Shown here piece after piece: positions 35,985-64,000 of a stretch of 64,000 nt of DNA. The DNA comes from Torpedo marmorata (Eukaryota). Each line of letters begins with the position of its first letter. The first letter of the stretch is position 1. The stretch lies in assembly GCA_977017645.1 (NCBI GenBank), contig OZ360225.1:2108001-2172000 (forward strand). Reading direction: 5' to 3'. The notes under the pieces are model-generated. The model worked only from the letters and a program-made list of their open reading frames with translations, was not told where the DNA came from and ran no database searches. Both the position numbers and the translations under genes were made by a program.

Positions 35985-36934
35985 GTGTTAGCGTCGGGTC
36001 GGTAAGATGGCGGCGCCGGAAGTGAAGTGTCGGGTCGGTAAGATGGCGGCGCCGGAAGTGACGAGGCCCAAGATGGCTGCCCCCATTCCTCGCACGAGTT
36101 GGCAGCGGCGGGTAGGTAGGACGGCGGCGCCGGAAGTGACGGCACATAAGATGGCCGCCCCCGAGTCTCGCATGCGGCGCTGCTCGAAACCGCTCGCGGC
36201 TTTGAGCGGCAGACCTTAGCAAAGTGGCCTTTCTTACCGCAGCTGGAGCTGGTCGCTTCGCGGGCCGGGCAACGTTTTCGGGGGTGCTTCTCGAGCCCGC
36301 AGAAATAGCATTTCTCGGGCTCGCGGCTGATGGTGGCAGTAGTCGAGTCGCTAGTCGGGTGGGGGGTCGGTGGCATCCACGGGGCCTGCTGGAGATCGCG
36401 CACTTGAATAGCATCCGAGTTCTGAAGCGCGGCCTCCAGCGTGTCGGCCAGTTCAATCGCAGAACGGAAGGTCAGGTCAGCTTGTTCCAGCAGTCGCTGG
36501 CGCACGTACACTGACCTGATCCCCGTGACAAAGGTGTCTCTTCCTAGCAGCTCTGCATGCTGTTCAGCCGTCAGCCCCCTGCAGTCGCACGCCCGCACGA
36601 GTGTCTGTATGGCCCGTACGAACTCCGCGATCGACTCCCCGGGCCGCTGCTGCCGCGTCGTTAGCCTGTGCCTCGTGTATACAGAGTTCACAGGCCATAT
36701 ATACTGACGTTTTAGTGCATTCATCGCCTCCTCGTAGGTCTGCAAGTCGCGGATCATCGAGTAAACTCGTGGGCTTACCCTAGAGAGGAGGACCTTGCGT
36801 TTTTCCGTGTTGTCCTGCACCTTGATCTCCTGTAGGAACGACTCAAAGCAGACTAGCCAGAGTTCGAAGGCGTTGCCGACGTCCGATGCTTGCGGGTCGA
36901 CGTCCAGTTTGTCTGGTCTCAGAATGTTCTCCAT
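35873..36934 (-). pseudogene. Gypsy Gag
   Basis: MENILRPDKLDVDP N-terminus; CYFCG...HPRKRC and CGKKGHFAKVC knuckles. Confidence 0.9.
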
Positions 36935-37190
36935 ATTTACAATGTAGTTAATAAAATTGATACGCCCATCAATAACTCCAAAAGACTAGAAGTTACACAA
37001 GAACTGAAAGGCTTTTATTAGTTACAGAATGGAGCTACATTCGTGCTGATGATCTGTCCCGGACTGGGGGAGGAGTTGTGGGACAATGGCCTTTATTCAA
37101 GGGGGTTTGTGGGAGGAGCCACCGGGACAGTCAGCAGGGCATGTCCAAACCTATCACCAGCCCACAATACATATACAGTGGTTTACCACA

Positions 37191-38840: not shown

Positions 38841-41405
38841 TAGTCTTTTGAGTTTTAGGGATTTGAGCGAGAGACTGTGAGACCCGGCTGCTTTAAATTG
38901 GTGGGCGGTATAAGCGGAGCGGCCATCGTGGGAGTGGCCATCATGTGAGTGGGCCAGAGTAGGAGAGGGGAGTTGAGGCTTTGGCTCAAGAGGGTTAGGC
39001 AAGCAGAGTCTGAGGTGAGTATCTGGTACGTTCTTTCTTTCCTAAGTGAGGGCATAGTTAGAGCATTTAAAATGACTCCTGAGACAGTGATGTGCCTCTC
39101 ATGTGAGATGTGGCAGTCCTGGGGGAACTCCCCTCTCCCAGAGAGGCACATTTGCCAGAAGTGTATGCAGATGGACGAACTGGAAGACCGTGTTAGGAAT
39201 CTAGAGCAGCAGCTGGAAGACCTTCGGCTCATAAGGGAGAAAGAAGCAGTCATAGATCAGAGCTACAGGGAGGTAGTCACACCTAGGCTGCCAGAAGCAG
39301 GTAGTTGGGTGACAGTCAGAGAGGGGAAAGTGAAGGTGAGCAGGCAGGTAGTACAGAGCACCCCTGTGGCCATTCCCCTGGATAATAAGTATATCGTCCT
39401 GGATACTGTTGGGGGGGATGACCTACCAGGAGGGAGCCACAGTGGAAGGGCCTCTGGCACTGAGCCTGGCCCTGTGGTGCAGAAGGGTGGGACAGAGAAG
39501 AGGAGAGCTGTAGTCATAGGGGACTCTATAGTTAGGGGGGCAGACAAGAGATTCTGTGGGCGTGTGAAAGACACCTGCATGGTATGTTGCCTCCAGGGTG
39601 CCAGGGTCCGGGATGTCTCTGATCGGGTCCAATGCATTCTGGTGTGAGAGGGAAAGCAGCCGGAAGTTGTGGTACATGTTGGTGCCAACAACATAGGTAG
39701 GAAAAGGGACGAGGTCCTGAAGAATGAGTTTAGGGAGCTAGGCAGAAGGCTGAAGAACAGGACCTTAAGGGTAGCATTCTCAGGATTGCTGCCAGTGCAA
39801 CGTGATAGTGACGGTAAGAATTGGAGGAGATGGCAGATGAATGTGTGGCTGAGGAGTTGGTGCAGGAGTCAGGGTTTTAGATTTTTGGATCATTGGGATC
39901 TCTTCTGGGGAAGGTGGGACCTGTACAGATGGGATGGCTTACACCTGAACTCGAGGGGGAGCAATATCCTTGCGGGCAGGTTTGCTAGTGTGGTTCGGGA
40001 GGGTTTAAACTAGTTTGCAAGGGGGATGGGACCCGGAGTGATAGGACAGTGGAAGAAGTGCATGAAGTAAAGCCAGATCTATCATTTAGAGAGGCTTTGA
40101 GGAAGCAGAAGCAGAATATAGGGTATAAAAGTAGTAAGGTAGAAGGGCTAAAGTGCATGTAGTTGAATGCAAGAAGCATCAGGAATAAGGGTGATGTACT
40201 GAGAGCTTGGATACATACATGGAACTATGATGTAGTGGCCATTACAGAGACCTGGCTGGCACCAGGGCAGGAATGGATTCTGAATATTCCTGGATTTCAG
40301 TGTTTTAAAAGGGATAGAGAGGGGAGGAGAAGGGGAGGAGGGGTGGCATTACTGGTCAGGGATACTATTACAGCTGCAGAATGGGTGGGTAATGTAGCAG
40401 GATCCTCTATTGAGTCAGTATGGGTGGAAGTTAGGAACAGGACGGGAGCAGTTACTCTATTGGGAGTATTCTATAGGCCCGCTGGTAGTCGCAGGGATAC
40501 CGAGGAGCAGATTTGAGGCAGATTTTGGAAAGGTGCAAAAATAACAGGGTTGGTATCATGGGTGACTTCAACTTCCCTAATATTGACTGGCACCTGCTTA
40601 GTACCAAAGGTTTAGACGGGGCAGAGTTTGTTAAGTGTGTCCAGGACGGATTCCTGTCACAGTATGTTGACAGGCCGACTAGGGGGAATGCCATATTAGA
40701 TCTAGTATTAGGTAATGAACCGGTCAGGTCACAGATCTCTCAGTGGGTGAACATTTGGGGGACAGTGACCACCGCTCCCTGGCCTTTAACATTGTCATGG
40801 ACAAGGATAGAGTCAGAGAGGACAGGAAAATATTTAATTGGGGAAGGGCAAATCATGAGGCTATAAGGCTAGAACTTGCGTGTGTGAATTGGGATGACAT
40901 TTTTGCAGGGAAATGTACTATGGAGATGTGGTCGATGTTTAGGGATCTCTTGCAGGTTGTTAGGGATAAATTTATCCCGGTGAGGCAGAGAAAGAATGGT
41001 CGGGTGAAGGAACCATGGTTGATAAGAGAGGTGGAAAATCTAGTCAGGTGGAAGAAGGCAGCATACATGAGGTTTAGGCAGCAAGGATCAGATAAGTCTC
41101 TTGAGGAATATTAGGTAGCAAGAAAGGAGCTTAAGAGGGGGTTGAGGAGAGCAAGAAGGGGACATGAGAAGGCCTTGGCGAGTAGGGTTAAGGAAAACTC
41201 CAAGGCATTCTTCACTTATGTGAAGAACAGAAGGATGACAGGAGTGAAGGTAGGACCGATTAGAGATAAGGGTGGGAAGATGTGCCTGGAGGCTGTGGAA
41301 GTGGGTGAGGTCCTCAATGAATACTTCTCTTCAGTATTCACCAAGGAGAGGCTCCTTGATGACGGTGAGGACAATATGGTGGGGGGGGGGTTTAATGTTC
41401 TAGAG

Positions 41406-41780
41406 CAGTGGTTTTCAAACTGCCCCCCTAAACTCACATTCCACCTTAAGCAATCCCTATGCCATAAGTGCTCTGTGATTGGTAAGGGATTGCTTAAGGT
41501 GGTATGTGAGTGGGAAGAAAAAGTTTGAAAATCACTGTTTTAATCGTACCTAATTGACTCGTTAAGTGCACGGTTTCATAACTCCAAAGGAAATGGGCCA
41601 ATGACAATTTTTCTCAAGCAAAATATTTCAGTAACAATTGGGTCTAGAGCAGTGGTTCTCAACCTTCCCTTCCCACTCACATACCACCTTAAGTAATCCC
41701 TTACTAATCACAGAGCACTTATGGCATAGGGATTGCTTAAGGTGGAATGTGAGTTAAGAGGGGCAGTTTTAAAACCATTG
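41406..41780. mobile_element. hAT composite MITE (third copy)
   Basis: Perfect 8-bp TSD ttctagag (41398-41405, 41781-41788). Confidence 0.9.
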
Positions 41781-43524
41781 TTCTAGAGCATGTTGATATT
41801 AAGAGAGAGGATGTGTTGGAGCAGTTATATTCCCCAGGCTGCTCCATGAGGCGAGGGAGGAAATTGCTGAGGCTCTGGCTAGGATCTTTGTGTCCTCGTT
41901 ATCCACGGGAATAGTACCGGAGGATTAGAGGGTGGAAAATGTTGTCCCCTTGTTCAAAAAAGGTAGTAGGGAAAGTCCAGGTAATTATAGACCAGTAAGC
42001 ATTACGTCTGTGGTGGGCAAGCTGTTGGAGAGGATTCTTACAGATAGGATCTATGGGCATTTTGAGAATCATGGTCTGATCAGGGACAGACAGCATGGCT
42101 TTGTGAAGGGCAGATCATGTCTCACAAGCCTGATAGAGTTCTTTGAGGAGGTGACCAGACATATTGATGAGGGTAGTGCGGTGGATGTGGTTTACATGGA
42201 TTTTAGGCATTTGACAAGGTTCCACATGGTAGGCTTATTCAGAAAGTCAGAAGGCATGGGATCCAGGGAAACTTGGCCATGTGGATTCAGAATTGGCTTG
42301 CCTGTAGAAAGCAGAGGGTTGTGGTAGGGGGAGTACATTCGGATTGGAGGGCTGTGACTAGTGGTGTTCCACAAGGATCGGTTCTGGGACCTCTGCTTTT
42401 CGTGATTTTTATTAACGACTTGGATGAGGGGGTAGAAGGGTGGGTTGGCAAGTTTGCAGACGACACAAAGGTTGGTGGTGTTGTGGATAGTGTATTGGAG
42501 TGTAGAAGATTGCAGAGGGACATTGATAGGATGCAGAGCTGAGCTGAGAAGTGGCAGATGGAGTTCAATCCGGAGAAGTGTGAGGTGGTACATTTTGGAA
42601 GGACAAACTCCAAGGCAGAGTACAAAGTTAATGGCGGGATTCTTGGTATTGTGGAAGAGCAGAGGGATCTAGGGGTCAATGTCCACAGTTTCCTGAAAGT
42701 AGACAGGGTAGTTGCAGGGGTTAAAATCACTTGTATAGCCAGGGCTGCCAGTCCCGCCGTTTGTTTTGCATTCCTTTGAATGTTTCTGTGGTTGCGGCCT
42801 GTGAGACCAAGGTCTCTTTCTGTGTGCTTTCGAGATAATACAGGCAGTTTTGAATTGTCCTGAGTTCTGCGAAGATGGAGGTTCTTAGAATAGAGCTGAA
42901 ACTCTATTGACCGCATCAAGTATCGCAACAAGTATTGCTTCAAGTAACGTTTCAAGTAATGTATTAAGTATCTATTAAGCATCATGTTGATCGTGTATCA
43001 AAGTTGATAAGTAACCTTGGAAAACTCTATTCGACTTTGTCATGAATCTTTCTCGAAAAGCGAGTCATAAACAAGGAAATTACAGGCTCTCCAGGCGACT
43101 ATATAGGAAGATAGTCACTACATCTTAGTCAATAGAAAGGTTGTTATTGACTCGTTAGTCAATAGAAGACGGATCTTCAAGCAAGACTCGTAAGTCAAAG
43201 AAACCTGGACTATTGACTTGTTAGTCAATAGAAGGATGTATCTGAAGACATAGAAAGTTGGAAATCGAATTTGGAAGAAGACTGGATTGATTGGGCTCTG
43301 TAACAGAATCAGCTCGGCACAGACACAACAATCAAATCCATTGTTTGAAGCGGTAAGCCTTCTGTGTTTATTAAGGATTAGAACACGGTTTGGGGCATTG
43401 GAGCCGCTTGTCCGATGGATTGTTTTGGTTTTGGAAAAATTGTTGTGCATGTTTGATATATGAGTGTGACGAACGACCCGATGGAGGAGACAGCAGCTTT
43501 GGCTGCCAAGAAACTGTCGAGGAC

Positions 43525-43620
43525 ATGAAAGTAACAGAGCTTATTGAAGAATTACAAAGGTGACAATTAAATACAAACGGAAACAAGGCAGATCTACAAG
43601 CAAGACTGAGGGAGGATATA
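43525..43620 (+). pseudogene. SAP domain at the BEL-1 Gag N-terminus
   Basis: MKVTELIEELQR*QLNTNGNKADLQARLREDI fits the SAP pattern LKVxELKxELxxRGLxxxGxKxxLxxRL. Confidence 0.8.
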
Positions 43621-44902
43621 AATAAAGTTTCAGTTGCTGGGGATATGAATCCCACAGAATTACTGCCAGAAATATTAAGAGCAGCTAAGATCAGTCACGA
43701 GATAGTGGCTGAAGTTTTATCACAAGATGGCGGTGTGAAAGGTGAAAAATCTAAGATGGAGACATTGGTAGATTGAAGCATCGTCTGAAGTACAGGACCT
43801 AATAGGACCTAATGATAGTGTCTCAAATGCTGGTAGCATGAAAAGTAAGAGGAGTTCTAGAGCAGGCTCCAGAGTTTCAAGTACTGAATCTTTGCACAGA
43901 AAGATTCACGCAGACGCAGCAGTTCTTAAAGTAGACAGACATTACTTCAGATTGAATTGAACTTAGAAGATAAGGAGGAGCAGATAAGACTGACACAGGT
44001 GCGGCGATGACAAGAAGAGGAGCAAGAGGAAATGCAGCGATGAAGAGAAAAAGAGCTACAGGAGGAACAGCTATGAATGAAGGAAAAGGAGCTAAAAAGG
44101 CAAAATAAGCAACTGGAACTGGACAGAAAAATTGCTGTTAATGGGGCAAGGTCACAGGCACTAGAAAGTTCAGTGGTATCTGGTGCTCGAAGTAAATTAT
44201 GGAAAACATCAAGTTTTGATGAAGGACTTCAGGAAAAGAAACTATTAGATACCAAAGCTGAGGCAGCATTAGAACTACAACATTGGCTTCGTCTTGAATT
44301 AAACAGGTCTAGGTACAAAGCTGAGCCAGTGACAGAACAACAAGAAACGCTTGGGCCAGGACTAAGCGGGTTAACACTCGGTGCTGGGCTAGTGTTACAC
44401 CCACAATATGGACAGTCTTGAAGCAAGCAGAGCAAGGGATGAGCGAGCGCCACGGATGCGAGATGTGCGGATGCGAGATGTGCAAAATCCCGAATTAACC
44501 AAGGAGCTAGATATCGAAACCCAATGATGGCCGCAATGGACCAAGATGGGAGCCAAATGCCATCTCTTACAGAGTCATACCAGGTGCTCCCGGCAAGAAT
44601 GAGAAATCCGGGTGGACAAAGTAACGTAAACCTAGGCATGACAAAACAGGATGAAATGGCTGCATTGTTAATTCAGTTGCAGACACTCTCTTCTCTGCCC
44701 AAGATAAAAATTCCAATTTTTGATGGTGACCCACTTCAATTCCAAGGGTTTATGAAAAGTTTTGAACGTGGCATTGAAATTAAAAGTCACAGCTCGGACG
44801 ATTGTTTAGAGTATTTGCTTCAGTTCACGAGTGGACGACCGTGAGAACTTGTAAAGAGTTGCCAGCATATGACTCCAAATCAAGGGTACAAAAGGGCTAA
44901 GT

Positions 44903-45173
44903 AGTAAACACGAAAATCTGTAGACACCGTAATAATGTAGTAAAAAACACAAATGCTGGAGAACTCAGCAGGTCAAACAGTGTCTTTTATGTAGCAAAGG
45001 TAGAAATACATAACTGACGTTTCAGGCTTGAGCCCTTCTTCAAAGTATGAGAAAATGCCGGCAGACGTCCGAACAAAGGAGTGAGGGGGGAAGGGTGGGT
45101 GGGAAAGGCAGAAGATAATAGGTGGAGACAGGAGGGAGGGGACAGTAGCAAAGAGGGGGAGGAGGGATGGCTG
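44903..45173 (-). mobile_element. Penelope pLTR fragment in BEL gag
   Basis: Near-identical to 9636-9830 and to the reverse complement of 9970-10200. Confidence 0.85.
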
Positions 45174-45261
45174 GTTATTAGAGGAACATTTTGGTGACAA
45201 GTATAGAATTGCTAGAGCTTATATAAAGAAGGCTCTTTCATGGTCGTCAATAAGACCAGAG

Positions 45262-48200
45262 TACTGGGGTAATTATACCAGTATTGTATTCATTGGGTTT
45301 TTGTTTCTTTTCTATTTTCTTGTTTTTTCTTTTTCCTTTTAAGGAGCTGTCAAATAGACTACGATTCTGGAGGAAGGTGCTGGTGGATTTGATGGAGAGA
45401 GATTTAATAAAATTTAGTAATGATGGATAGTAAAATAATAAATGTAGTAAGTATTAATATAAATGGGCTAAATAATCCGATTAAAAGGAAAATAACTTTA
45501 GCGCATATTAAAAAGTTAAATGTAGACATAGCTTTTTTACAAGAGACACATTTGACAGATTTGGAACATCAGAAGTTAAAAAGAGAATGGGTTGGTCAAG
45601 TGGTTGCTTCTTCATTTAATTCTAAAGCAAGAGGAGTAGCCATATTAATTAATAAAAAGTTACCTTTTAAAATACAATCTGTGGTTTTAGATGTGGTAGG
45701 TAGATATGTTTTAATACATTGTCAGATATATTCGGAATTGTGGACACTTATGAATATATATGTACCAAATGCAGATGATGAACAATTTATTCAAGATTCT
45801 TTTTTGCATTTGTCAGAAGCTAATGATAATATTTTAATTGGTGGGGATTTTAACTGTTGTTTAGATCCGATAATGGATAAAAAATCAAGATCAGTTGCTA
45901 AATCTAAAATTTCCAAAAGAGTTCTTACTTTGATGAAACACTTAAATTTAATAGATATTTGGAGAAAATTGAATCCTAGAGAAAAAGATTACTCTTTTTA
46001 TTCTTTTAGACATGATTCATATTCTAGGATAGATTTGTTTTTATTGACTTCACAAGTTCAAGATAGAATAACACAAGCATCGTATAAAGTGAGAATAATT
46101 TCTGATCATTCGCTTTTATTAATGTCTTGTATAATTCCAGAAAAAGAAAAAACTATATATAGGTGGAGATTTAATTCTTCTTTATTAAAAAGAATGGATT
46201 TTTGTGATTATATAAGAAGGGAAATTCAGGAATTTTTACAAATAAATTCTAATTCAACTGATAACATAAACCTGATAATGTCGGATTAAATTTCTTTAAT
46301 TTTTTTGGTGTTAAATATAATTGATGAAAAAAATTGTATTGTACTAATCTATATCTAACATTAATAATCTTCGTCATACTTAATTTATATAATTCTTTAC
46401 AATGATTTTCATCTATTGTTACGTTCAAATCTAATTCCCATTTTAATCTTAATCTTAATTTATGAATTCCTACTGTAGGAGTTTTCCTCTGAAACAATTT
46501 ATACATTTGAGAAATAAATTTATTTACATCTAATTCATTCTGTCTTTGTAAGATCAAACTATAACCTAATTTCTCAATCAAAAATGCTGTAATAATATAA
46601 GAGAAGATTTCAAAGAAGAAGTTATTTATAAATGGAATTCTAACTTAATATCAACAAGAAGGAAGAACTCTCCTATTTTTAAACATTTGTTAGAAATATG
46701 GAATAGAGTGGATAGGGAAATAGGAGGAAAAGGGTTGATTTCTCCAAAAATGCCTCCATATCAAAATGAACTTATTCCATGTACTGTCGATAATCAATTA
46801 TTTAAAATTTGGTTTCAAAAAGGAATTAAGAAAATAAATGACTGTTTTGAAGCTGGTAAATTTATTACTTTTCAAAGAATGAAAGATAAGTTTAATATAT
46901 TGGATAATACACTTTTTTGCTTATTATCAAATTAGAGCATTTTTAGTTGGGATATTAGGTTATAATTTGATTCTACCAAGACAGAGTGAGTTAGAATTAT
47001 TAGTTACTAACGGGGGTGTAAATAAATTTATTTCCCAAATGTACAGATTGTTTCAGAGAAAAATCCCTAAAGTAGGAATTCATAAATCAAGATTAAAATG
47101 GGAATTATATTTGAATGTAACAATAGATGAAGATCATTGGAAAGAACTATGTAAATTAAGTATGACGAAGATTATTAATGTTAGATATAGATTAGTTCAA
47201 TATAATTTTTTTCATCAATTATATTTAACACCTAAAAGTTAAAGAAATTTAACGTGACATTATCAGGTTTATGTTTTAGATGTAATAGAGAGATAGGTTC
47301 TTTTGTACATTCTACATGGGTCTGTCCAAAAGTTTATGATTTTTGGTTGAAAGTTAAAAAGTGTTTAGATAAAGTATTTAAGATTATATTTCCGATGGAT
47401 CCTATGATATTTTTGTTTGGAGATATTAAAAGAGTTAGTATTAAGATGAAATTAAATATAATTTAAAGATTTATTGATACCTTTATATATGGAGGTATTG
47501 AATCAAGTTACTGAAACTCATTTATTACCAAAGACATTTTTAAATGCTATAATTACGGTTATACCAAAGAAGGATAGAGATGTGTTGAAAACTGAGTCTT
47601 ATAGGCCTATTTCATTATTAAATGTTGATTATAAAATAATGGCAAAAATTTTAGCGAATAGATTAGCTAAGTATTTACCAAATTTAATTCATTCAGATCA
47701 AGCTGGATTTATTAAAAATAGATATTCGAAAGATAATATAGCTAGATTGATAAGTTTGATTAATATAAATAAGAAGAAACAAGATTTACCATTGGTGGTA
47801 ACATTAGATGCAGAAAAGGCATTTGATAGAGTAGAGTGGAATTTTTTATTTAAAGTTTTGGAAAAATTTGGATTCGGAGATAATTTTATAAATTGGATTA
47901 AAACTATATATAAGGAACCTACGGCTAAAGTAGTTACAAATGGACAAATATCACAAAAATTTTTGTTATCAAGATCAACACGACAGGGATGTCCTTTGTC
48001 ACCTGCTTTGTTTGTCTTGGTAATAGAACCTTTAGCAGAAATGATTAGAGAAGATATAAATATAATGGGAATAAAAGTAGGTAGGGAAGAACATAAGATT
48101 AGTTTGTTTGCAGATGATGTATTAATATATATGACGAAATCTGTTAAATCACTTCAACAATTGGCCAATATATTGACAGAATATGGTGAGATATCAGGAT

Positions 48201-50591
48201 ATAAAATTAATTCAGATAAAAGTGAGATTTTAGCTTTATCCCAAGGGGATTATACTAGATGCAAAGAAGTTACAGATTTTAAATGGACTTTAGAGAGTAT
48301 TAAATATTTGGGAGTCAAAATTGATACAAAATTAGAGAATTTGTATAAATTAAATTATATTCCTTTATTTATGAAAATAAAAAAAGATTTAGAGCTTTGG
48401 AAAGATTTACCTATAACTTTGATGGGAAGAGTAAATTGTATTAAAATGAATGTTTTTCCAAGAATTCAATATCTTTTTCAATCGATTCCTTATGGTATTC
48501 CAAATAAATTTTTTAAAGATTTAAAATTTATTATTAGGAAATTTTTATGGAAAGGAAAGTTGGCAAGAGTAAGTATAGATAAATTAACATGGAATTATGA
48601 GATGGGAGGGTTACAACTTCCTAATTTTCAGTATTATTATAAAGTGGCTCAATTAAAATTTATTAATGAATTCTTTGATTTAAATAAATCTTCTGCTTGG
48701 ATTAATATAGAATTGAATAATATGGGAGAAATACATAAAGAAGATATTATTTATAAATGGAATTCTAAATTATTATTACTTAAAAAGAAAAATACACCAA
48801 TTATTAAACATTTGTTGGAAATCTGGTCACAAGTAGACAAAGAGATAGGTCAAAAAGGATTAATTTCTTTAAATACACCAATATATCAGAATCCGCTTTT
48901 ACCATTTTCTATGGATAATCAGTTACTTAAGTTATGGTTTTTAAAGGGAATTAAGACTTTAAAAGATTGTTTTGAAGCAGGTAGATTTATTACTTTCCAG
49001 AGGTTAAAAGAAAAATTTAATATATTGGATAATACAATGTTAGTTTATTTTGAAGTTAAAGCTTTTTTGATTGAGAGATTAGGGAATGAATTAATAGCAC
49101 CAAGGCAAAATGAATTGGAATTATTAATTACTAAAGTCAATGTTAATAAATTTATATCACAAATGTATAAGTTGTTTCAAAGAAAGATGTCTAAAGTAGG
49201 AGTGCATAAGTCTAGATTGAAATGGGAATTAGATTTGAATGTTAATATAGATGAAAATCATTGGAAAGATTTATGTAAATTAAGTATGACAAAAGTTATT
49301 AATGTGAGATATAGCTTAGTACAATATAATTTTTTTCATCAATTGTATTTGACACCTAAAAAATTAAAAAAATTTAATCCAGCGTTATCAGATATGTGTT
49401 TTAGATGTAAAACTGAAATAGGAACTTTTGTACATTGTACATGGTCATGTTCAAAAATTCAAGATTTTTGGTTGAAAGTTAAGAATTTTTTAGAAAGAAT
49501 TTTTAATGTTGAAATTGCAATGGATCCTATGTTATTTTTATTTGGAGATATTAAAAAATTTAGTATTAGACATAGATTAAATATGTATCAAGTAGAATTT
49601 TTACGTATAGTATTAGCAGTTTCGAAAAAATGTATAGCTATTACTTGGAAATCGGATGTTGATTTAAATTTAGAGCGATGGCATGCAGAGTTACGGTCAT
49701 GTATACCATTAGAAAAAATTACTTATAATTTACGAAATAAATATCATTTCTTTTTGAAAATTTGGGGCCCATACATGAGGATTATGGGTTTAACATTGTA
49801 AATTCTCTGGATATCAGATCCGCTGGCGAAATAACCTCTAAGATATATTAGTTTTTAAGCTTATTGACTCCTCACTCTATTTTTCTATTTTTCTATCTTT
49901 TCTTTTCTTTTTTCTTTTATTATTTTATTTTATTTTAAATTTAGACTAGGGGGATATAGGGGTTAGGGAGGGGAGGGTGGGAAGGATGGGGGAGAAAATG
50001 TAATCACATGTAATTTTTAAAGAATTATATGCAAAATTATATTATGTAATGTGTGATTAAAAATTTAAATAAAATATTAAAAAAAAAAAAAAAAGATGAA
50101 ATTAAATATGTATCAAATAGAATTTTTGCGAATTGCTTCAGCTGTTTCTAAGAAATGTATTGCTATTACTTGGAAATCTGATGTAGATTTAGGGTTAGAA
50201 AGATGGCATGCAGAACTTCGTTCTTGTATACCACTTGAAAAAATTACTTATAATTTACGTAATAAATATAATTTCTTTTGAAAATATGGAGTCCTTATAT
50301 GAAGGTTGTTGGTTTAAGGATTTGAAGATCTCTGGACATTGGATCTGACTGGCGAACCTATCCTCCATAATAAAATTAGTTATTGATGTATTTTTTAGAT
50401 TGACGTTCTCCTAATACTATCTTTTTCCTTCTTTCTTTCTTTTTATTTTTATTAGATTAGAAGGGGTCGGAGGGTTAGGGAGGGGAGGGAGGCAGGAGGG
50501 GTGAAAATGTATCACATGTATTTTGACAATTTTATATTTTATCTTATGTATTTTGTGATTTAAAATTTTAAATAAAATATTTTTAAAAAAA
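45262..50591 (+). mobile_element. Rearranged L1 (spacer plus ORF2 endonuclease, templated patch, 3' end)
   Basis: APE ORF 45420-46289 (NINGLN, LQETH, GGDFN, SDH); 3' part 46594-47459 plus 50093-50591; TSD aataagaccagag/aataagacagag. Confidence 0.85.
47460..50092 (+). mobile_element. L1 (second subfamily) nested in L1, with uninterrupted 775-aa RT/C-terminal frame
   Basis: ORF 47474-49801; poly(A); 17-bp TSD aagatgaaattaaatat (47443-47459, 50093-50109). Confidence 0.93.
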
Positions 50592-52230
50592 AATAAGACA
50601 GAGGACACCAATGGTTTACAAGCTTACGCTCTATTTCGAAGAGGATGTTGCAACGTCACGACAGAGATTAGCCATCTTGGAGAGCTGGACATGCCTCTAA
50701 ATATGGTAAGCATTGTAGATAAATTACCCAACCGGATGAGAGAATTATGGTGAAGACAAGAAAATTCCATGTGACAGCTAACTTTAAGGATTTGGTGAAT
50801 TTCATTGAAGAACAAGTGGATGTTGTTACAGATCTGGTGTATGGAATTAAAGATACTCAAACAATGAGTAAAGAAGTTGAAAAGTCCAAATCGTATCCTC
50901 AACCAAAATTGAAGACAAATACATTTGCCTCCTCTCTGACAGTGGTGGATAAAGAAATTAAGAAAAACAAAAGTTTGCCTGATGAGAAAATGTTTTTATT
51001 ATGTAATGATAAACATGATTTGGAAAAATGTGCACAGATGGAAAAGAAGATGCATAGTGAGAGAATCGTTTTCTTGAAGGAAAATGGTGTGTTTTGGCTG
51101 TCTGTGTAAAGCATACATTGGCAAAGACTGCAAAAAGCGACTCAGCTGCGATATATGTAATCGAAGGCATCCAAAAATGCTACACGTCTTCAAAGAAAAG
51201 AAGGATACAGAAAAGGAACAAACATCGATAAAAGAAACAGATGAAAACAGTGCTGAAGCTTCAGGACCGACAAGTGGGCTTACTGGGGCCACTGCAGATA
51301 GCTGTAAACTCTCGCTAGTACCTGTACAAGTCCAGGCTAAGGATGGGAATGCATCAGTACATACTTATGCATTTCTTTACCCAGGAAGCACTGCATCATT
51401 TAGCACTGAGGGGGTTATGAAAAGGCTTAATCTTGAAGGAAAAAATACAAAGATTCTATTGAAAACCATTGGACAAAGAAAGGTCGTTGAAACTAACATT
51501 TTTTCAGTATTAAAGGTTGCTGGAAAACAGAGTGATGATTTTTGTGAACTTCCAGACATATATACACAGAAGACCATGCCTGTGCATAAAGGAAACATCC
51601 CACATCAAAGTGATGTGCTTCAGTGGAAATATCTGAGAAAGGTTTATATACCGGGAGCTCATAACTCTGAGATAGAAATGCTAATTGGTTTGAATGTACC
51701 AAAGGCTGTGGAACCAATAGAAGTAATCCCTAGTGAAGGAGATGGACCTTACGCTATTAAAACAATGCTTGGATTGACAGTGAATGGACCATTAGAAAGA
51801 AAGAATGATATTGCTCAGAAGCAGTCAACAACAAATGTCAATACAATATCTGTTGTGAAACTCAAGGAACCTTTAGAAGAATACAAACAGTTCTTAGAAA
51901 GTCTTACTGATGAAAATAAATCAAGAGCATCTAAATCAGTGAAGAAGAAATTGTTTTCATCAAAAATGGATGAAAATGAAGCATTAGAAGATGCTGCAAA
52001 TACTGCTGGTGATTAATCCTGTGAAGCTAAATCAAAGGCAGGAATAAAACAAATATCTGGAAACAAATCTGACAATATGGTACAACTGACTTCAGAGTAC
52101 AAAATGTTGAAAAATAACTTAGAAATATTGGATGGTCCAGAAAACAGTGACCAAAAGGATTTTAACTTTGTACTTGGAAACAAAACTGGATCTGATGATT
52201 CTTCAGTTTTGAAAGTAACCAAAAAGAGAA

Positions 52231-52477
52231 GCAGTTGACAAGAATGAAGAATTAATTGCAAATAGAATTTGTAAAACCAAGAGGAAGAAAAGAATAACTG
52301 CTGAAGAAATGAATACAGTTATTGAAGAAAGGGATTCAGCATTGTCAAGATGTAAAAAATTGGAGGAAGAGATTCATTTCTTGAAAGAGAACGTCATTGT
52401 TTAATGACACCAGACAACTGACTATGGAAAACAATGAAGAATGTACCTTGAAGATGCAAAAGGAAAGAAATAGTACA
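52231..52477 (+). pseudogene. MIPOL1: MIPOL1-like coiled-coil coding fragment inside BEL-1
   Basis: AVDKNEELIANRICKTKRKKRITAEEMNTVIEERDSALSRCKKLEEEIHFLKE, then after a frameshift NDTRQLTMENNEECTLKMQKER; resembles recalled MIPOL1 sequence RIYKTKE...RITAEEMSALIEERDAALSKCKRLEQELHHVKE...NNMRHLTAENNQERALK (from memory, not searched). Confidence 0.7.
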
Positions 52478-52548
52478 TTCTTGAAGACCCATTTGATAAA
52501 TACAGAGAAAGAATTTAATAAAAAACTTCAAGATAAATAATCAAGAAG

Positions 52549-53686
52549 GAATTAAGAAAATTAATAACTGTTTTGAAGCTGGGAAATTCATTACTTTTCA
52601 AAGAATGAAGGATAAATTTAATATATTAGATAATACACTTTTTGCTTATTATCAAATTAGAGCTTTTCTGATTGAGAAATTAGGTTATAGTTTGAGTTTA
52701 ACAAGACAGAATGAATTAGAATTATTAGTTACTAAAGGAGATGTAAATAAATTTATTTCTCAAATGTATAAATTGTTTCAGAGGAAAACTTCTAAAGTAG
52801 GAATTCATAAATCAAGATTAAAATGGGAATTAGATTTGAATGTAAGAATAGATGAGAATCATTGGAAAGAATTATGTAAATTAAGTATGACGAAGATTAT
52901 TAATGTTAGATATAGATTAGTACTATAATTTTTTTCATCAATTATATTTAACACCTAAAAAACTAAAGAAATTTAATCCGACATTATCAGGTTTATGTTT
53001 TAGATGTAATAAAGAAGAAGGTTCTTTTGTACATTCTACATGGTTTTGTCCAAAAGTTTATGATTTTTGGTTGAAAGTTAAAATTGTTTTAGATAAAGTA
53101 TTGAAGATTACATTTCCAATGGATCCTATGATATTTTTGTTCGGAGATATTAGAAAATTTAGTATTAAGATGAAATTAAATATGTATCAAATAGAATTTT
53201 TGCGAATTGCTTTAGCTGTTTCAAAGAAATGCATTGCTATTACTTGGAAATCTGATGTAGATTTAGGGTTAGAAAGATGGCATGCAGGACTTCGTTCGTG
53301 TATACCACTTGAAAAAATTACTTATAATTTACGTAATAAATACCATTTTTTCTTAAAAATTTGTAACCCTTATATGAAAGTTGTTGGTTTAAGAATTTGA
53401 AGATCTCTGGGTATCGGATCTGCTGGCATACCTGACCACCACAATAGAATTAGTTTATAGATGTATGTTTTTTAGATTGGCATTCTCCTTATTCTATCTT
53501 TTTCTTTCTTTTTTCTTCTTTCTCTATTTTTATTTTATATTTTTTTTTTAATTAGATTAGTGGGGTTGGGAGGGTTGGGGAGGGGAGGGTGGGGGGGTGA
53601 AAATGTATCACAAATATTTTGATAATTTCATATTTTATTTTATGTATTTTGTGATTTAAAATTTTAAATAAAATATTTTTTAAAAA
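52549..53686 (+). mobile_element. L1 3' fragment
   Basis: ORF2 C-terminus, G-rich UTR, poly(A); short TSD aagaag. Confidence 0.9.
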
Positions 53687-53879
53687 AAGAAGTAAAACTG
53701 AATTGAAGGTTGCAAAATTGAATCCGAAATTACAGGAAAAAACAATGAAAGTCAGAGTGGCTGTTGATAAGTTTGAGGAATCAATGATATTTGAGTCCTA
53801 CCCTTTCTATAACCGACTGCAGAAGAAAAAGAAAAAGAGAAAGAAGACTCATCTTGTGACCTCAAGAAAGTGAATACCT

Positions 53880-55159
53880 AAATTCACCAATTATTAAACA
53901 TTTGTTGGAAATTTGGTCACAAGTAGATAAAGAAATAGGTCGGAAAGGATCAATTTCTTTAAATACACCAATATACCAAAATTTGCTTATACCATTCTCT
54001 ATTGATAATCAGTTACTTAAATTATGGTTTCAAAAGGGAATTAAGACCTTGAAAGATTGTTTTGAAGCTGGTAGATTTGTTACTTTTCAAAGGTTAAAAT
54101 AAAAATTTAATATACTAGATAATACAATGTTAGTTTATTTTCAAGTTAAAGCCTTTTTGACTGAGATATTAGGGAATGAATTAGTAGCACCAAGACAAAA
54201 TGAATTGGAATTGTTAATTACTAAAGTTAATATTAATAAGTTTATATCACAAATGTATAAATTATTTCAGAGAAAGATGTCTAAAGTAGGGTTAAATAAA
54301 TCTAGATTAAAATGGGAACTAGACTTAAATGTTAATATAGATGAAAATCATTGGAGAGACTTATGTAAATTAAGTATGACTAAAGTTTTGAATGTTAGAT
54401 ATAGACTAGTACAATATAATTTCTTTCATCAATTATATTTAACACCTAAAAAATTGAAGAAATTTAATCCAGCATTATCAGATATGTGTTTTAGATGTAA
54501 GAGTGAAATAGTCTCTTTTGTTCACTGTACATGGTTATGTTCAAAAATTCAAGACTTTTGGTTGAAAGTTAAGAATTTTTTAGAGAGAATTTTTAATGTG
54601 TTTACGATGGATCCTATGTTATTTTTATTTGGAGATATTAGAAAATTTAGTATTAGAAATAGATTAAATATGTATCAGGTAGAATTTCTACGTATAGTAT
54701 TAGCAGTTTCGAAAAAGTGTATAGCTATTACTTGGAAGTCAGATGTAGATTTAAATTTAGAAAGATGGCATGCAGAATTTACATTCATGTATACCATCAG
54801 AAAAAATTACCTATAATTTGCGTAATAAATATCTTTTTTTTTGAAAATTTGGGGCCCATATATGAGAATTATGGGTTTAACAATTTAAATTCTCTGGATA
54901 TCGGATCCACTGGCGAAAATAACCTCTATGGTAGAATTAGTTTGAAGCTTGTTTTCTCCTCACTCTTTTTCTATCTTTCTTTTTTCTTTTTCTCTTTTAC
55001 TATATTTTTTTGTTTTTAGAGTAGTGGGGATGTAGGGGTTAGGGAGGAGAGGGTGGGAAGGGGGGGGGGAGAAAATGTATATCACATGTATTTTCAAATA
55101 TATGTATTTTATTCTATGTATTTTGTGATTTAAAAATTTAAATAAAAAAAAAAATAAAA
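53880..55159 (+). mobile_element. L1 3' fragment (second subfamily)
   Basis: 16-bp TSD aagaaagtgaatacct (53864-53879, 55160-55175). Confidence 0.92.
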
Positions 55160-55673
55160 AAGAAAGTGAATACCTTGGAAATTGAAATTGACTTTCTAAA
55201 CAGAACGATTACTGAAATCTGACTTTCACAAGAAGCAGAAAGCTTTGATGATTGATTTTCACTTTCTTTTGAATATTTACCCAATGTATTATATTTGATT
55301 TGCTTCGTAGTGGTAATTATTATTGGCAGATATAATAATTAGGGGCCGGTATTGTAGGGGTTAAAATCACTTGTATAGCCAGGGCTGCCAGTCTGGAGCA
55401 GCCCGCCGTTTGTTTTGCATTCCTTTGAATGTTTCTGTGGTTGCGGCCTGTGAGACCAAGGTCTCTTTCTGTGTGCTTTCGAGATAATACAGGCAGTTTT
55501 GAATTGTCCTGAGTTCTGCGAAGATGGAGGTTCTTAGAATAGAGCTGAAACTCTATTGACCGCATCAAGTATCGCAACAAGTATTGCTTCAAGTAATGTT
55601 TCAAGTAATGTATTAAGTATCTATTAAGCATCATGTTAATCGGGTATCAAAATTGATAAGTAATAACCCACAT

Positions 55674-57415
55674 TTATATAAATTAAATTATGTACCTTTA
55701 TTTACGAAAATAAAGAAAGATTTGGAAAATTGGAAAGATTTGCCTATAACTTTAATGGGAAGAGTAAATTGTATTAAGATGAATATTTTTCCAAGAATTC
55801 AATATCTTTTTCAATCAATTCCTTTTGGAATTCCAAAATTTTTTTTAAAAGATTTAAAGTTTATTATTAGGAAATTTTTATGGAAAGGGAAGTTAGCAAG
55901 AGTAAGTATGGATAAGTTAACATGGAATTATGAGATGGGAGGAATGCAACTCCCTAATTTTCAATATTATTATAAAGCAGCTCAATTAAAATTTGTTAAT
56001 GAATTTTTTGATTTAGCTAAAACTTCTGCCTGGGTCAATATAGAATTAAATAATATAGGAGAAAATTATAAAGAGGATATTATTTATAAGTGGAATTCTA
56101 AATTATTATTAGTAAGAAAGAAAAATTCACCGATTATTAAACATTTGTTGGAAATATGGACGCAGGTAGATAAAGAAATAGGAGGGAAAGGGTTAATTTC
56201 TTTAAATATGCCATTATATCAAAATCCACTTTTATCATTTACTATGAATAATCAGTTATTGAAAGTATGGTTTCACAAAGGAATTAAGAATTTTAAAGAT
56301 TGTTTTGAGGCTGGAAGATTTGTTACGTTTCAAAGATTGAAGGAAAAATTTAATGTATTAGATAATACATGGTTAGCTTATTATCAAGTTAAAGCTTTTT
56401 TGACTGAGAAATTAGGGGATGATTTGATTGCTCCAAGACAAAATGAGTTAGAATTATTAATAACTAAAGCAAATGTTAATAAGTTTATTTCTCAAATGTA
56501 TAAATTATTTCAGAGAAAAATGCCTAAAGTAGGATTACATAAATCAAGATTAAAATGGGAATTAGATTTAAATGTTAATATAGCTGAACATCATTGGAAA
56601 GATTTATGTAAATTAAGTATGACTAAAGTTATTAATGTTAGGTATAGATTAGTACAATATAATTTTTTCCATCAATTATATTTAACCCCAAAAAAATTAA
56701 AGAAATTTAATCCGACATTATCGGATTTGTGTTTTAGATGTAAGAGTGAAATAGGTTCTTTTGTTCATTCTACATGGTTATGTCCAAAGATTCAAGATTT
56801 TTGGTTGAAAGTTAAGAATTTTTTAGACAGAGTTTTTAATGTTATGTTTCCAATGGAACCTATGTTATTTTTATTTGGTGATATCAGAAAATTTAGTATT
56901 AGGAATAGATTGAATATGTATCAGGTAGAATTTTTACGGATTGCTTTAGCTGTTTCAAAAAAATGTATTGCTATTACTTGGAAATCAGCTTTAGATTTAA
57001 GTTTAGACAGGTGGCATGCAAAACTCCGTTCGTGTATTCCTCTGGAAAAGATTACTTATAATTTACGTAATAAGTATCATTCTTTTTTAAAAAATTGGAG
57101 CCCATATATGAGAGTTATGGGTTTAAGGATTTGAAATCTCTAGATATCAGGTCTATTGGCGAGTTTAACCTCCATGATAAAATTAGTTTGTAGATGGTTC
57201 TCCCCTTACTATTAATCTATCTTTCTTTTTTACTATGTATTTTTTTTTATTATTATTATTTTTTTTTAGAATAGTGGGGATGGGTGGGGTTTGGGAAGGG
57301 AGGGAGGGTGTGGGGGGAGGAAATATATATCACTTGTATTTTGAAAGTTACATATTTTGATTTATGTATTTTGTGATTTAAAAATTTAAATAAAATAATT
57401 AAAAAAAATTTAAAA
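55674..57415 (+). mobile_element. L1 3' fragment in the BEL-1 3' LTR
   Basis: Open ORF2 C-terminus to 57134; 16-bp TSD aagtaataacccacat (55658-55673, 57416-57431). Confidence 0.93.
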
Positions 57416-57895
57416 AAGTAATAACCCACATAAGGTCTAATAAACCTTGGACAACTCTATTCGACTATGTCATGAATCTTTCTCAAAAAGCGAGTCATAA
57501 ACAAGGAAATTCCAGGATCTACAGGCGACAATATAGGAAGATAGTCGATACAATAGTTAAGAAAGCATTTGGGGTGTTAGCTTTCATAAGTCAAGGGATT
57601 AAGTTTGTAAGGGTTAAAATGACTTGCACACATATTCTTGCTAACCAGCCGGCGAATATTGTTTACAAATTCCATGAGTATTTCTCCATAGTAACAGCGT
57701 TTAAGCCAAGGTCTTTTTCTGCATGTTTGAGATAAACAAATTAGTTTTCAATTTACTTTTGTACTGTGTAGGACCAGAGCAAAATGAAGACGGTCCGTAT
57801 AATTCTTTTTGACCATTCTTTTCAATGTATTAACATTTTATTGTCTGTTTTATTAATTGTTTTAAGTATAGTTTAATTGTTTTATCAAAGTTCTT

Positions 57896-60467
57896 TTTTT
57901 AAATATTTTATTTTAAATTTTTAAATCACACAATACACTGTATAAAATGCAAAATTATCAAAATACATGTGATACATTTTCTCCCCCCCCACCCTCCCTC
58001 CCCTCCCTAACCCTCCCACCCCTACTAATCTAATAAAATAGAAAAAAAAGAAAGAAAAAGATAAAATAAGGAGAATGTCAATCTAAAAAAAAAAAACAAC
58101 TATAAACTAATTTTATTGTGGAAAATAGGTTCACCAGTCTGATCTGATATCCAGAGATCTTCAAATACTTAAACCAACCATTTTTATATACGGGCTCCAT
58201 ATTTTCAAAAAGAAATGATATTTATTACATAAATTATAAGTAATTTTTTCAAGTGGTTTTGCTGAACGAAGTTCTGCATGCCACCTATCTACCCCTGAAT
58301 CTACATCAGATTTCCATGTAATAGCAATACATTTCTTAGAAACAGCTAAAGCAATTTGCAAAAATTCTATTTGGTACATATTTAATTTCATCTTGGTACT
58401 AATTCTTTTAATATCTCCCAATAAAAATATCATAGGATCCATTGGGAGTGTAATTCTTTTTTTTATATATATTTTATTTAAAATTTTAAATCACAAAATA
58501 CACAAAATCAAATATAAAATTATCAAAAATACTTGTGATACATTTTCACCCCCCCTCCAACCCTCCCCTCCCCAACCCTCCCAACCCCACTAATCTAATA
58601 AAATAATAAAAAAAAGAAGAAATAGAAAAGAAAAAGATAAGGTAAGGAGAATGTCAATCTAATAAATACATCTATGAACTAATTCTATTATGGAGGTTAG
58701 GTAGCCAGTAGATCCAATGTCCAGAGATCTTCAAATCCTTAATCCAACAGCTTTCATATAAGGGCTCCATATTTTTAAAAAGAAATGATATTTATTCCGT
58801 AAGTTATAAGTAATTTTTTCAAGTGGTATACATGAACGAAGTTCTGCATGCCATCTTTCTAACCCTAAATCTACATCAGATTTCCAAGTAATAGCAATGC
58901 ATTTCTTTGAAACTGCTAAAGCAATTCGCAAAAATTCTATTTGATACATATTTAATTTCATCTTAATACTAAATTTTTTAATATCTCCAAACAAAAATAT
59001 CATAGGATCCATCGGAAATATAATCTTAAATACTTTATCTAAAAAATTTTTAACTTTCAACCAAAAATCGTAGACTTTTGGACAAAACCATGTAGAATGT
59101 ACAAAAGAACCTTCCTCTTTATTACATCTGAAACATAAACCTGATAATGTCGGGTTAAATTTCTTTAATTTTTTAGGTGTTAAATATAATTGATGAAAAA
59201 AATTGTATTGTACTAATCTATATCTAACATTAATAATCTTCGTCATACTTAATTTACATAATTCTTTCCAATGATTTTCATCTATTGTTACATTCAAATC
59301 TAATTCCCATTTTAATCTTGATTTATGAATTCCTACTTTAGGGATTTTCCTCTGAAACAATTTATACATTTGAGAAATAAATTTGTTTACATCTCCTTTA
59401 GTAACTAATAATTCTAATTCATTCTGTCTTGGTACAATCAAAGCATAACTTAATTTCTCAATCAGAAAAGCTCTAATTTGTTAATAAGCAAAAAGTGTAT
59501 TATCTAATATATTAAATTTATCTTTCATTCTTTGAAAAGTAATAAATTTCCCAGCTTCAAAACAATCATTTATTTTCTTAATTCCTTTTTGAAACCAAAT
59601 TTTAAATAATTGATTATTAATAGTAAATGGAATAAGTCCATTTTGATATAAAGGCATCCTTGAAGAAATCAATCCTTTTCCTCCTATTTCCTTATCCGTC
59701 TTATTCCATATTTCTAACAAATGTTTAAGAACAGGAGATTTTTTCTTTCTTGTTGATATTAATTTAGAATACCATTTATAAATAACGTCTTCTTTGGAAT
59801 CTTCTCCTATATTATTTAGTTCTATTTTAATCCAAGCAGAAGATTTAGTTGAATCAAAAAATTCATTAACAAATTTTAATTGAGCTGCTTTATAATAATT
59901 TTGGAAATTAGGAAGTTGTAAACCACCCATTTCATAATTCCAAGTTAATTTTTCCATACCTACTCTTGCTAACTTTCCTTACAATAAAAATTTTTGGGAG
60001 TGTAATTCTTAATACTTCATCTAAAAACTTTTTAACTTTCAACCAAAAATCATATATCTTTGGACAAAGCCATGTAGAATGTAGAAAAGAACCTTCCTCT
60101 CTATTACATCTAAAACATAAACCAGATAATGTCGGATTAAATTTCTTTAATTTTTTAGGTGTTAAATATAATTGGTGGAAAAAATTATATTGCACTAGTC
60201 TATATCTGACATTAATAATTTTTGTCATACTTAATTTACATAATTATTTCCAATGTTCTTCATCTATTGTTACATTCAAATCTGATTCCCATTTTAATCT
60301 TGATTTGTGAATTCCTACTTTGGGCATTTTTCTCTGTAATAATCTATACATTTGAGAAATAAATTTATTTACACCTCCATTAATAACTAATAATTCCAAT
60401 TCACTTTGTCTTGGTAAAATCAAACTATAACCCAACCTTTCAACTGAAAATGCTCTAATTTGATAAT
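57896..60467 (-). mobile_element. L1 3' fragment with a second L1 (58459-59993) nested in it
   Basis: Outer TSD aagttctt (57888-57895, 60468-60475); inner 17-bp TSD ttgggagtgtaattctt (58442-58458, 59994-60010). Confidence 0.9.
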
Positions 60468-61190
60468 AAGTTCTTAACGCATAAAGTTCTAATAAACAGT
60501 GAAAAACTCAATGCTACTTTAGAACGGACTTTCCATTTAACGAGTCAAAACAACACCGTCTGCAAGCTGTCCGAGCGATTATAAAGGGAGATAGTCGCAA
60601 TATTTAGTCAAAAAGAATTTTGGATTATTGACTCATATGTAAATAAAATGGACTATTGACTCGTTAGTCAATAGAAGACGGATATTCAAGCAAGACTATT
60701 TAGCCAAATGAATATGGACTATTGACTCATTAGTCAATAGAAGACGGAATTGAAGCATAGAAAGATGGAAATTGGATTTGGAAGAAAAGACTGGATCGAT
60801 TGGGCTCTGTTTAGAGCAGATTGATAAAGGAGGCACAAACATCAACAACCAAGACCATTGAAGAAGCGGTAAGCCATTGGAAGTTTATTCTGCATATTTA
60901 TTACAAGTTATGTGGACTGTTTTGGTTTTGGAGAGATTGTTGTGAGTGTTTAGTGTCTGAGTGCGACAAACGACACAATGGAGGAAGCAGCAGCTGTAGC
61001 TTCTTAGGAACTATGTGTCGAGAAGATGAAGGTATCAGAACTTATAGAAGAATTGTGAAATCAGCAATTAAAGAAAAATGGAAACAAAGCGATTCTTCAA
61101 GCGAGACTGAGGGAGGATATAGATAAGAAAAAGGTTACAGTAGTTAGGGATACACATCCCATAGAATTACTGGAAAAACCATTAATAGAA

Positions 61191-63803
61191 TTTTTAAAAA
61201 AAAATATTTTATTTAAAATTTTAAATCACAGAATACATAAAATAAAATATGAAATTATCACAATACTTGTGATACATTTTCACCCCCTTCCCACACTCCC
61301 CTCCCCAACCCTCCCAACCCCACTAATCTAATAAAATAAAAATAAAAAAATAAAATAAAATAAAAAAATAATTAAAAAAAAGAAAGAAAAAGATAAGGTA
61401 AGGAGATTGTAAATCTAAAAAATACATCTATAAACTAATTCTATTATGGAGGTCAGATAGCCAGTAGATCCGATGTCCAGAGATCTTAAGATCCTTAAAC
61501 CAACAGCTTTCATATATGGGCTCCATATTTTTAAAAATAAATGATATTTATTCCGTAAATTATAAGTAATTTTTTCAAGTGGTATACATGAACGAAGTTC
61601 TGCATGCCATCTTTCTAACTCTAAATCTAAATTAGATTTCCAAGTAATAGCAATAGATATCTTTGAAACAGCTAAATCAATTTGCAGAAATTCTATTTGA
61701 TACATATTTAATTTCATCTTAATACTAAATTTTTTAATATCTCCAAAGAAAAATATCATAGGATCCATTGGAAATGTAATCTTAAATACTTTATCTAAAA
61801 AAATTTTAACTTTCAACCAAAAATCATAAACTTTTGGACAAAACCATGTAGAATGTACGAAAGAACCTTCCTCTTTATTACATCTAAAACATAAACCTGA
61901 TAATGTCGGATTTAATTTCTTTAATTTTTTAGGTGTTAAATATAATTGATGAAAAAAATTGTATTGTACTAATCTATATCTAACATTAATAATCTTCGTC
62001 ATACTTAATTTATGTAATTCTTTACAATGATTTTCATCTATTGTTACATTCAAATCTAATTCCCATTTTAATCTTAATCTTAATTTATGAATTCCTACTT
62101 TAGGAGTTTTCCTCTGAAACAATTTATACATTTGAGAAATAAATTTATTTACATCTAATTCATTCTGTCTTTGTAAGATCAAACTATAACCTAATTTCTC
62201 AATCAAAAATGCTGTAATTTCATAATAAGCAAAAAGTGTATTATCTAATATATTGAATTTATCTTTCATTCTTTGAAAAGTAATAAATTTCCCAGCTTCA
62301 AAACAATCGTTTATTTTCTTAATTCCTTTTTGAAACCAAATTTTAAATAGTTGATTATTAATAGTAAATGGAATAAGTTCATTTTGATATAAAGGCATCC
62401 TTGGAGAAATCATTCCTTTTCCTCCTATTTCCTTATCCGTCTTATTCCATATTTCTTTTTTTTAAAAAATATTTTATTTAAAATTTTTAAATCACAAAAT
62501 ACATAAAGCGTAATATAAAATTATCAAAATACATGTGATACATTTTCTCCCCCCCCAACCACCCTCCCCACCCTAACCCTCCCGGTACCGGCTGGTCTGA
62601 TGAGGAGAAAATTATTCATTATTAGTAATGGCGGATAGTAAGTTAATAAATGTTGTAAGTATTAATATAAATGGGCTAAATAATCCGATTAAATGGAAGA
62701 GAACTTTGGCATATATTAAAAAGTTAAAAGTTGATATTGCCTTTTTACAAGAGACACATTTGACAGAGGCAGAACATCAGAAACTGAAAAGAGATTGGGT
62801 TGGTCAAGTGGTTGCGTCCTCATTTAATTCTAAAGCAAAAGGAATTGCTATTTTAATTAATAAAAAGTTACCTTTTAAGTTACAGTCTGTGATTTTAGAT
62901 GTTTCAGGAAGATATGTTTTAATAAATCGTCAAATATATTCAGAAATGTGGACACTTATGAATATATATGTGCCAAATACGCAAGATGAACAATTTATTC
63001 AAGATTCTTTTATGCATTTATCAGAAGCAAATGAGAATATCTTAATTGGTGGGGACTTCAACTGTTGTTTTGATCCGATACGAGATAAAACATCAAAATC
63101 AATTATTAGAACTAAAATTGCAAAAAAAATTCTTTCTTTGATGAAAGATTTGAATTTAATTGATATTTGGAGGAAGTTGAACCCAAGAGAAAAAGATTAT
63201 TCTTTTTATTCTTTTAGACATGATTCTTACTCTAGAATAGATATGTTTTTATTATCATCTCATTTACAAGATAGAGTTACTCAAATACAATATAAAGCAA
63301 GAATAATTTCTGATCATTCGCCTTTAATAATGTCATGTATAATTCCAGAACAAGAGAAAATTGCATATAGATGGAGATTTAATTCTTCCTTATTGAAAAG
63401 ACCGGATTTTTGTAATTATATAAGAAGAGAAATTTATGAATTTTTACAGATTAATTCTAATTCGATTGATAATACATTTATTATTTGGGAGACTTTAAAG
63501 GCTTATTTAAGAGGTCAAATAATAAGTTATTCAGCAAAGGTTAAAAAAGAATATGTTCAGGAATTAGATAAATTGGAGAAGGAGATTGAATTTTTGGAGA
63601 AAGATTTATTCCATATTTCTAACAAATGTTTAAGAATAGGAGAATTTTTCCTTCTTGTTGATATTAATTTAGAATCCCATTTATAAATAACTTCTTCTTT
63701 GGAATCTTCTCCTATATTATTTAATTCTATTTTAATCCAAGTAGAAGATTTAGTTGAATCAAAAAGTTCATTAACAAATTTTAATTGAGCTGCTTTATAA
63801 TAA
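61191..63803 (-). mobile_element. L1 in BEL-2 gag, interrupted by further L1s
   Basis: ORF 61415-62413; resumes 63606-63803. Confidence 0.88.
62457..63605. mobile_element. 5'-inverted L1 insertion (about 125-bp 3' end on -, spacer plus endonuclease on +)
   Basis: 15-bp TSD ttattccatatttct (62442-62456, 63606-63620); APE ORF starts at 62628. Confidence 0.85.
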
Positions 63804-63990
63804 TTTTTTTTTTAAAAATATTTTATTTAAAATTTTTAAATCACAAAATACATAAGGCAAAATATAAAATTATCAAAATACATGTGATACATTTTCTCCC
63901 CCCCAACCACCCTCCCCACCCTAACCCTCCCACCCCCACTAATCTATAAAATAAAGGAAAGAAAAAGATAGAATAAGGAGAATGCCAATT
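63804..63990 (-). mobile_element. L1 3' UTR/poly(A) fragment
   Basis: Poly(T), C-rich tract and conserved UTR end. Confidence 0.8.
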
Positions 63991-64000
63991 GTTACAAATT

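Follow-up and report, generated by a model that had tools for sequence, protein, structure and literature searches.

Comparative sequence evidence for probable self-priming of reverse transcription in BEL/Pao retrotransposons related to two elements of Torpedo marmorata

The window analysed here, a stretch of 64,000 nucleotides from contig OZ360225.1 of the 6.2 Gb Torpedo marmorata genome, holds two LTR retrotransposons on its forward strand, BEL-1 and BEL-2. BEL-1 begins with a 5' LTR at 42713-43122 that has TG...CA ends and from which the poly(A) signal has been deleted, followed by a broken gag (SAP, DUF1759-like and Cys-His boxes) and protease, split by LINE insertions (43564-52016), and by a fragment resembling the host gene MIPOL1 that occupies the position of pol (52225-52480). 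A polypurine tract (55342-55352) precedes the 3' LTR (55353-57552), which contains a LINE insertion and the only AATAAA found in the two LTRs of this element (57439). The 5' LTR of BEL-2 (57606-60602) contains LINE pieces at approximately 57895-60484, carries AATAAA at 60491, and terminates in ATA, not CA. We set the LTR ends of both elements from 3' and solo LTRs and from the target-site duplications of other copies; LTRs, polypurine tract, and target-site duplication are all present in the window elements. The LINE insertions represent one family, with endonuclease and reverse transcriptase (RT), densely nested into both elements across 45390-64000. A search of 42500-61200 against Rfam gave no match.

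Judged by sequence homology, both elements are non-autonomous derivatives of BEL/Pao (Belpaoviridae). Their gag-protease piece has 102 homologues in fish, oyster, and amphioxus, many of them with PF05380, PF03564, or PF18701, and the protease region in the window is approximately 59-65% identical to autonomous copies of the same genome. RT, RNase H, and integrase were found neither in the window elements nor in the fetched copies of families A and B, in which pol is replaced by the MIPOL1-like fragment (best match E 6e-29, 73% over approximately 87 amino acids; mammalian matches 57-58%), retained in the checked copies. Autonomous relatives were sought among 7,945 RT candidates in the genome, 150 of which were scored; a protease-RT-RNase H-integrase pol was found in L104, and a 1,999-amino-acid frame of an autonomous relative matches Peptidase_A17, DUF1759, RVT_1, rve, and DUF5641 in Pfam. 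Like the Belpaoviridae described by ICTV (PMC8742986), the autonomous relatives encode Gag Cys-His boxes, protease, RT, RNase H (Peptidase_A17), and integrase in the same order, and the elements have LTRs of 0.4-0.65 kb and a polypurine tract. A Pfam scan found no chromodomain, nor were proteins of the Ty3/gypsy chromovirus type present, and a search of IMG/VR found no relative. A second RT query, with 150 of its 7,455 candidates scored, found no other BEL lineage that could serve as a tRNA-primed control. The window families, having no RT, would be mobilised in trans by autonomous relatives sharing the signal described below.

Just past each 5' LTR lies a short box that is an exact complement of a site within the same LTR. 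In BEL-2 the box at 60607-60619 pairs over 13 nt with 57801-57813, and in BEL-1 the box at 43128-43136 pairs over 9 nt with 42903-42911, a site of which the 3' LTR holds a copy at 55552-55560. These complements were reported in the initial annotation and are exact, and the spacers it gave between LTR and box (5 nt in BEL-1, 4 nt in BEL-2) are right when LTR ends are taken from other copies. The sites lie about 190 nt (BEL-1) and 195 nt (BEL-2) into their LTRs, also as described. Their placement upstream of AATAAA holds for BEL-2, and the poly(A) signal is downstream of the site in the families examined, but the claim fails for the 5' LTR of BEL-1, from which AATAAA has been lost. The 18 nt primer-binding site (PBS) for tRNA-Arg or tRNA-Gly that ICTV ascribes to the family, with priming by host tRNA (PMC8742986), is absent from the window elements: no TGG follows either LTR, in agreement with the annotation, and within 32 tRNA genes of nine types the best match was 5-7 nt and internal.

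Considering composition and seven possible offsets, the chance of such a match is approximately 0.016 for a 9-mer and 0.0004 for a 13-mer. BEL-1 taken alone is therefore the weaker case, resting on modest evidence of 9 bp and on a leader with competing hairpins, although a sister subfamily pairs over 10 bp. Its box occurs three times (43128, 43158, and 43224), twice inside local hairpins, and the tandem leader hairpins at 43144-43232, in which site and box are repeated, compete with the long-range pairing when the leader is folded. Tandem hairpins are also found at 60625-60741, and in both arrays each unit consists of the 3' part of the predicted primer and a copy of the spacer and box.

The initial annotation had also argued for a compensatory change between the two elements, and on two elements this was thin; in the larger sample, covariation extends across the scored copies of the genome. 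We collected 90 copies with a 5' LTR and scored 83, placing site and box by their flanks and dropping seven in which the site or the LTR end was lacking. In 73 of the 83 copies no fewer than 9 of the 11 positions pair, matched insertions and deletions included, and the 83 retain three rows mis-mapped from a decayed reference (L096, L201, and L203) that count against the hypothesis. Mean pairing is 9.78, which 0 of 10,000 permutations attain; exchanging sites and boxes between copies gives a mean of 7.85 (sd 0.13). These were plain swaps in which kinship among copies remains. With the same test, pairing exceeds its swapped value in family A (8.73 vs 7.85, n=15), family B (10.15 vs 8.36, n=27), and family D (9.84 vs 8.72, n=38), each with 0 of 10,000 permutations, and is not significant in family C (n=3). 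Two or three Watson-Crick types occur at each of positions 6 to 10, and runs of 3, 4, or 5 T in the site are accompanied by runs of 3, 4, or 5 A in the box.

This pairing is kept while the LTRs themselves diverge. Family D and family A LTRs share only stretches of 14-21 nt and still retain 10-12 bp, as do autonomous families whose LTRs have almost no likeness to those of family A; likeness was judged from local alignments, global identities being inflated by gaps (shuffled baseline 70%) and set aside. The first ten positions of the box do not vary among 26 young copies. At the 5' end of the primer, where self-priming would predict variability, 23 young copies show four alleles, as many as are seen in 7 of 149 control windows. 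By target-site duplications, the right end of the LTR is CA or ATA and the spacer 0 to 6 nt, depending on subfamily (L094-L110 and L216-L235). Roughly thirty nearly identical LTR copies of family B, all with a common flank, lie at approximately 14.8-16.7 Mb of one contig (G000:C80; L062-L083 and L088-L090), apparently a tandemly multiplied block.

The pairing is also kept in elements of other hosts, for which a metagenome scan gave 79 loci. Twelve elements had an LTR end that could be defined from the 5' and 3' repeats, four of them adjusted by eye where the alignment overran, and 10 of the 12 have a match of 10-14 bp located 0-6 nt past the LTR end, compared with 8 of 960 control windows. The two misses are L137, which is decayed and pairs over 9 bp, and L183, which pairs over 6 bp under a strict acceptor filter and 10 bp without it. 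Three of the ten matches are contiguous; the other seven arise only once a GT-AG intron within the LTR is taken out, and most of these introns have a donor of the GTAAGT type and an acceptor rich in pyrimidines. Of the 79 loci, 65 had sufficient upstream DNA for a blind scan, which returned 89 independent matches of at least 10 bp, in 31 of which GT directly follows an LTR-end-like triplet (background 3.1%); among spliced matches of at least 10 bp, 16 of 19 begin in this way. Of 26 families picked by hand, 25 have a primer ending in AC, which is partly a selection effect; the following base, which was not selected for, is C in 22. TGG occurs near just one of 29 foreign boxes, and that same box has a 10 bp spliced self-match.

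The spliced form bears directly on the nature of the partner. The locus L174 falls within a group of intron-bearing relatives that share its box, yet it has the exon-exon joint as contiguous DNA and so captures at least one precise loss of the LTR intron. Because seven of ten matches exist only across an intron and the intron was lost precisely in L174, the primer is most likely RNA. Moreover, a box that complements a splice joint can be neither copied from DNA nor maintained by a host RNA, which points to the element's own RNA as the partner; we regard this as the strongest argument. In an RT tree of 94 sequences, from which four loci without RT were excluded, the window lineage falls in a clade where every scored member has the contiguous form, while a second clade holds most spliced forms along with three intron-less branches. 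This tree is midpoint-rooted with weakly supported deep nodes, and the intron may therefore be either ancestral or derived.

Together with covariation and conservation in relatives, the splice-junction form supports self-priming at the primer-site position, and we consider it very probable that these elements prime from the 5' end of their transcript in a manner resembling Tf1. The box takes the place of a tRNA site and pairs with the 9-15 nt site in its own LTR. Transcription would begin at or just ahead of this site, and the first 10-14 letters of the RNA would bend back and anneal to the box. Cleavage behind the conserved ...AC, by the RNase H of RT if the analogy with Tf1 holds, would then provide the 3' end for RT. 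Plus-strand synthesis would copy the primer and thereby rewrite the box, giving rise to covariation. At a broader level, it seems likely that a BEL/Pao branch spanning phyla self-primes without tRNA, that the primer is often put together by the host spliceosome from a very short first exon, and that the intron-less forms, here and in fish, follow or precede that intron.

Folding of the leaders counts in part against this mechanism. When 18 leaders were folded to 5 nt past the box, duplex probability was at least 0.87 in 17; extended to 60 nt past the box, it was at least 0.8 in 11 and approximately 0 in BEL-1, L026, L104, and L118. A hairpin at the end of U5, located at 43095-43118 in BEL-1 and 60575-60598 in BEL-2, has arms with compensatory changes in these two families, in D, and in several relatives; its mean stability is -7.3 kcal/mol vs -4.6 kcal/mol for other LTR windows, but it is weak in several. 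The loop of this hairpin in BEL-1 consists of TATA-like letters. We rejected the idea that these act as a TATA box close to the end of the LTR, with transcription starting at the box, as they belong to the loop and do not resemble TATA in family D and most relatives. No TATA box was found ahead of the LTR site, and assembled RNA contigs compared with one family B and one family D LTR gave no usable start. Two further points count against the proposal: the predicted first exon of the spliced relatives is only approximately 3-8 nt, and integrase would need to cope with spacers that range in length from 0 to 6 nt.

Other explanations for the pairing deserve consideration. Covariation proves pairing, not priming, and the duplex might instead be a conserved leader structure for packaging, dimerisation, or a translation switch in an element primed by something else; the ability of leader hairpins in families A and B to displace the duplex would fit such a role. 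We nonetheless find this unlikely, since in every family examined the box lies exactly where the 3' end of a primer is needed to set the end of U5, AC|C is conserved at the end of the duplex, and neither a second conserved candidate site nor, apart from the one foreign box noted above, a TGG is present. Somewhat less likely still is self-priming by the site copy in the 3' LTR, or in a second packaged RNA, cut at that place in a transcript that starts well upstream. Both LTRs do contain the site, no very short first exon would be needed, and the transcript start at the site is itself an inferred position. However, the poly(A) signal lies well beyond the end of the site, which is thus not the natural 3' end, and the pairing stops after 10-15 nt. 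The intron is also retained in the LTR although the box corresponds to the spliced form; this would fit splicing of the cap-proximal copy, with the intron inherited from the unspliced 3' copy.

Priming by a host RNA such as a tRNA fragment, snRNA, or rRNA end, with the LTR match being secondary, agrees with the tRNA-Arg or tRNA-Gly priming given for the family (PMC8742986), and our comparison covered tRNA genes only, 32 of them with nine anticodon types. Yet the 83 copies in a single genome have 33 different 11-nt boxes, indels included, that track their own LTR, and the short internal tRNA matches came from a set that included one Arg and one Gly gene; we consider a host primer highly improbable. 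The least credible reading is chance, or an inverted duplication at the DNA level tied to the tandem leader hairpins, for which BEL-1 alone, with its 9 bp and threefold box, might be cited. Pairing occurs without tandem hairpins in autonomous and foreign families, and the complement of a splice junction is not copiable from DNA; this reading is largely refuted by the foreign controls, the permutations, and the blind scan.

Self-priming from the transcript 5' end, which we favor, has precedents in other retrotransposons. In Tf1, the PBS is paired with bases 1 to 11 of the RNA, and RNase H cuts between bases 11 and 12 (PMC7175516); self-priming is likewise described for Tf1/sushi (bioRxiv 2022.12.06.519325; PMC4600332; PMC5443660). 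Like Tf1, Tf2, Tj1, and other Tf1/sushi elements, in which those accounts place an LTR complement of approximately 11 nt right after the 5' LTR and no tRNA site (PMC7175516; bioRxiv 2022.12.06.519325; PMC4600332), the window elements would work as Tf1 does without being members of Tf1/sushi, as they belong to BEL/Pao and lack a chromodomain match, whereas Tf1/sushi are Ty3/gypsy chromoviruses. They further differ from Tf1 in having a local U5 hairpin by the box instead of a demonstrated three-duplex pretzel, a spacer of 0-6 nt, and many relatives that form the primer across an intron. For the plant elements Tcn1 (gypsy) and TAR (copia), which represent other superfamilies and hosts, self-priming has been predicted using, in the part of PMC6317226 considered, a threshold of at least 10 bp starting 0-5 bp past the LTR. 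BEL-2 (13 bp) and most relatives pass this threshold, BEL-1 (9 bp) is just below it, and the spliced form would be overlooked by it.

Within BEL/Pao, the main-text passages of three surveys (PMC3118150, PMC554778, and PMC6238403), supplements aside, do not mention the PBS or tRNA, and the passages of PMC3601003 covered here do not treat BEL LTRs. Our literature search, which extended to sources other than subscription papers and Repbase entries, found neither self-priming nor a spliced primer reported for BEL/Pao. The BEL-group element Cer7 of C. elegans has reportedly been proposed to supply its own primer, said to be a tRNA-like copy near the 3' LTR, unlike a fold-back of the transcript 5' end.

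BEL/Pao replication is officially described as primed by host tRNA and is poorly understood, and the comparative evidence strongly supports self-priming in this group. If the proposal is correct, a branch in fish and invertebrate hosts has independently adopted a mechanism for which Tf1 provides the only proof. This would account for the failure of PBS finders on these elements, make start sites predictable from sequence alone, and allow self-primed BEL/Pao to escape control by tRNA fragments. Should the relatives indeed build their primer by splicing, retroelement replication would be tied to splicing in a new way, with splicing of the cap-proximal LTR copy acting as a licence for reverse transcription.

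The window also holds other repeats. A Gypsy element on the reverse strand (32482-37190) encodes gag, protease, RT, RNase H, and integrase, has no chromodomain match, and is likewise without TGG. Of 20 copies fetched, 19 were parsed, and in 15 of these the post-LTR box is perfectly complementary over 14 bp to the stretch spanning the AATAAA of the element; 12 of 14 positions match in the window copy, making the element a second candidate for self-priming. Three related near-palindromic repeats of approximately 375-400 nt, at 8301-8675, 10461-10836, and 41395-41791, are MITE-like.
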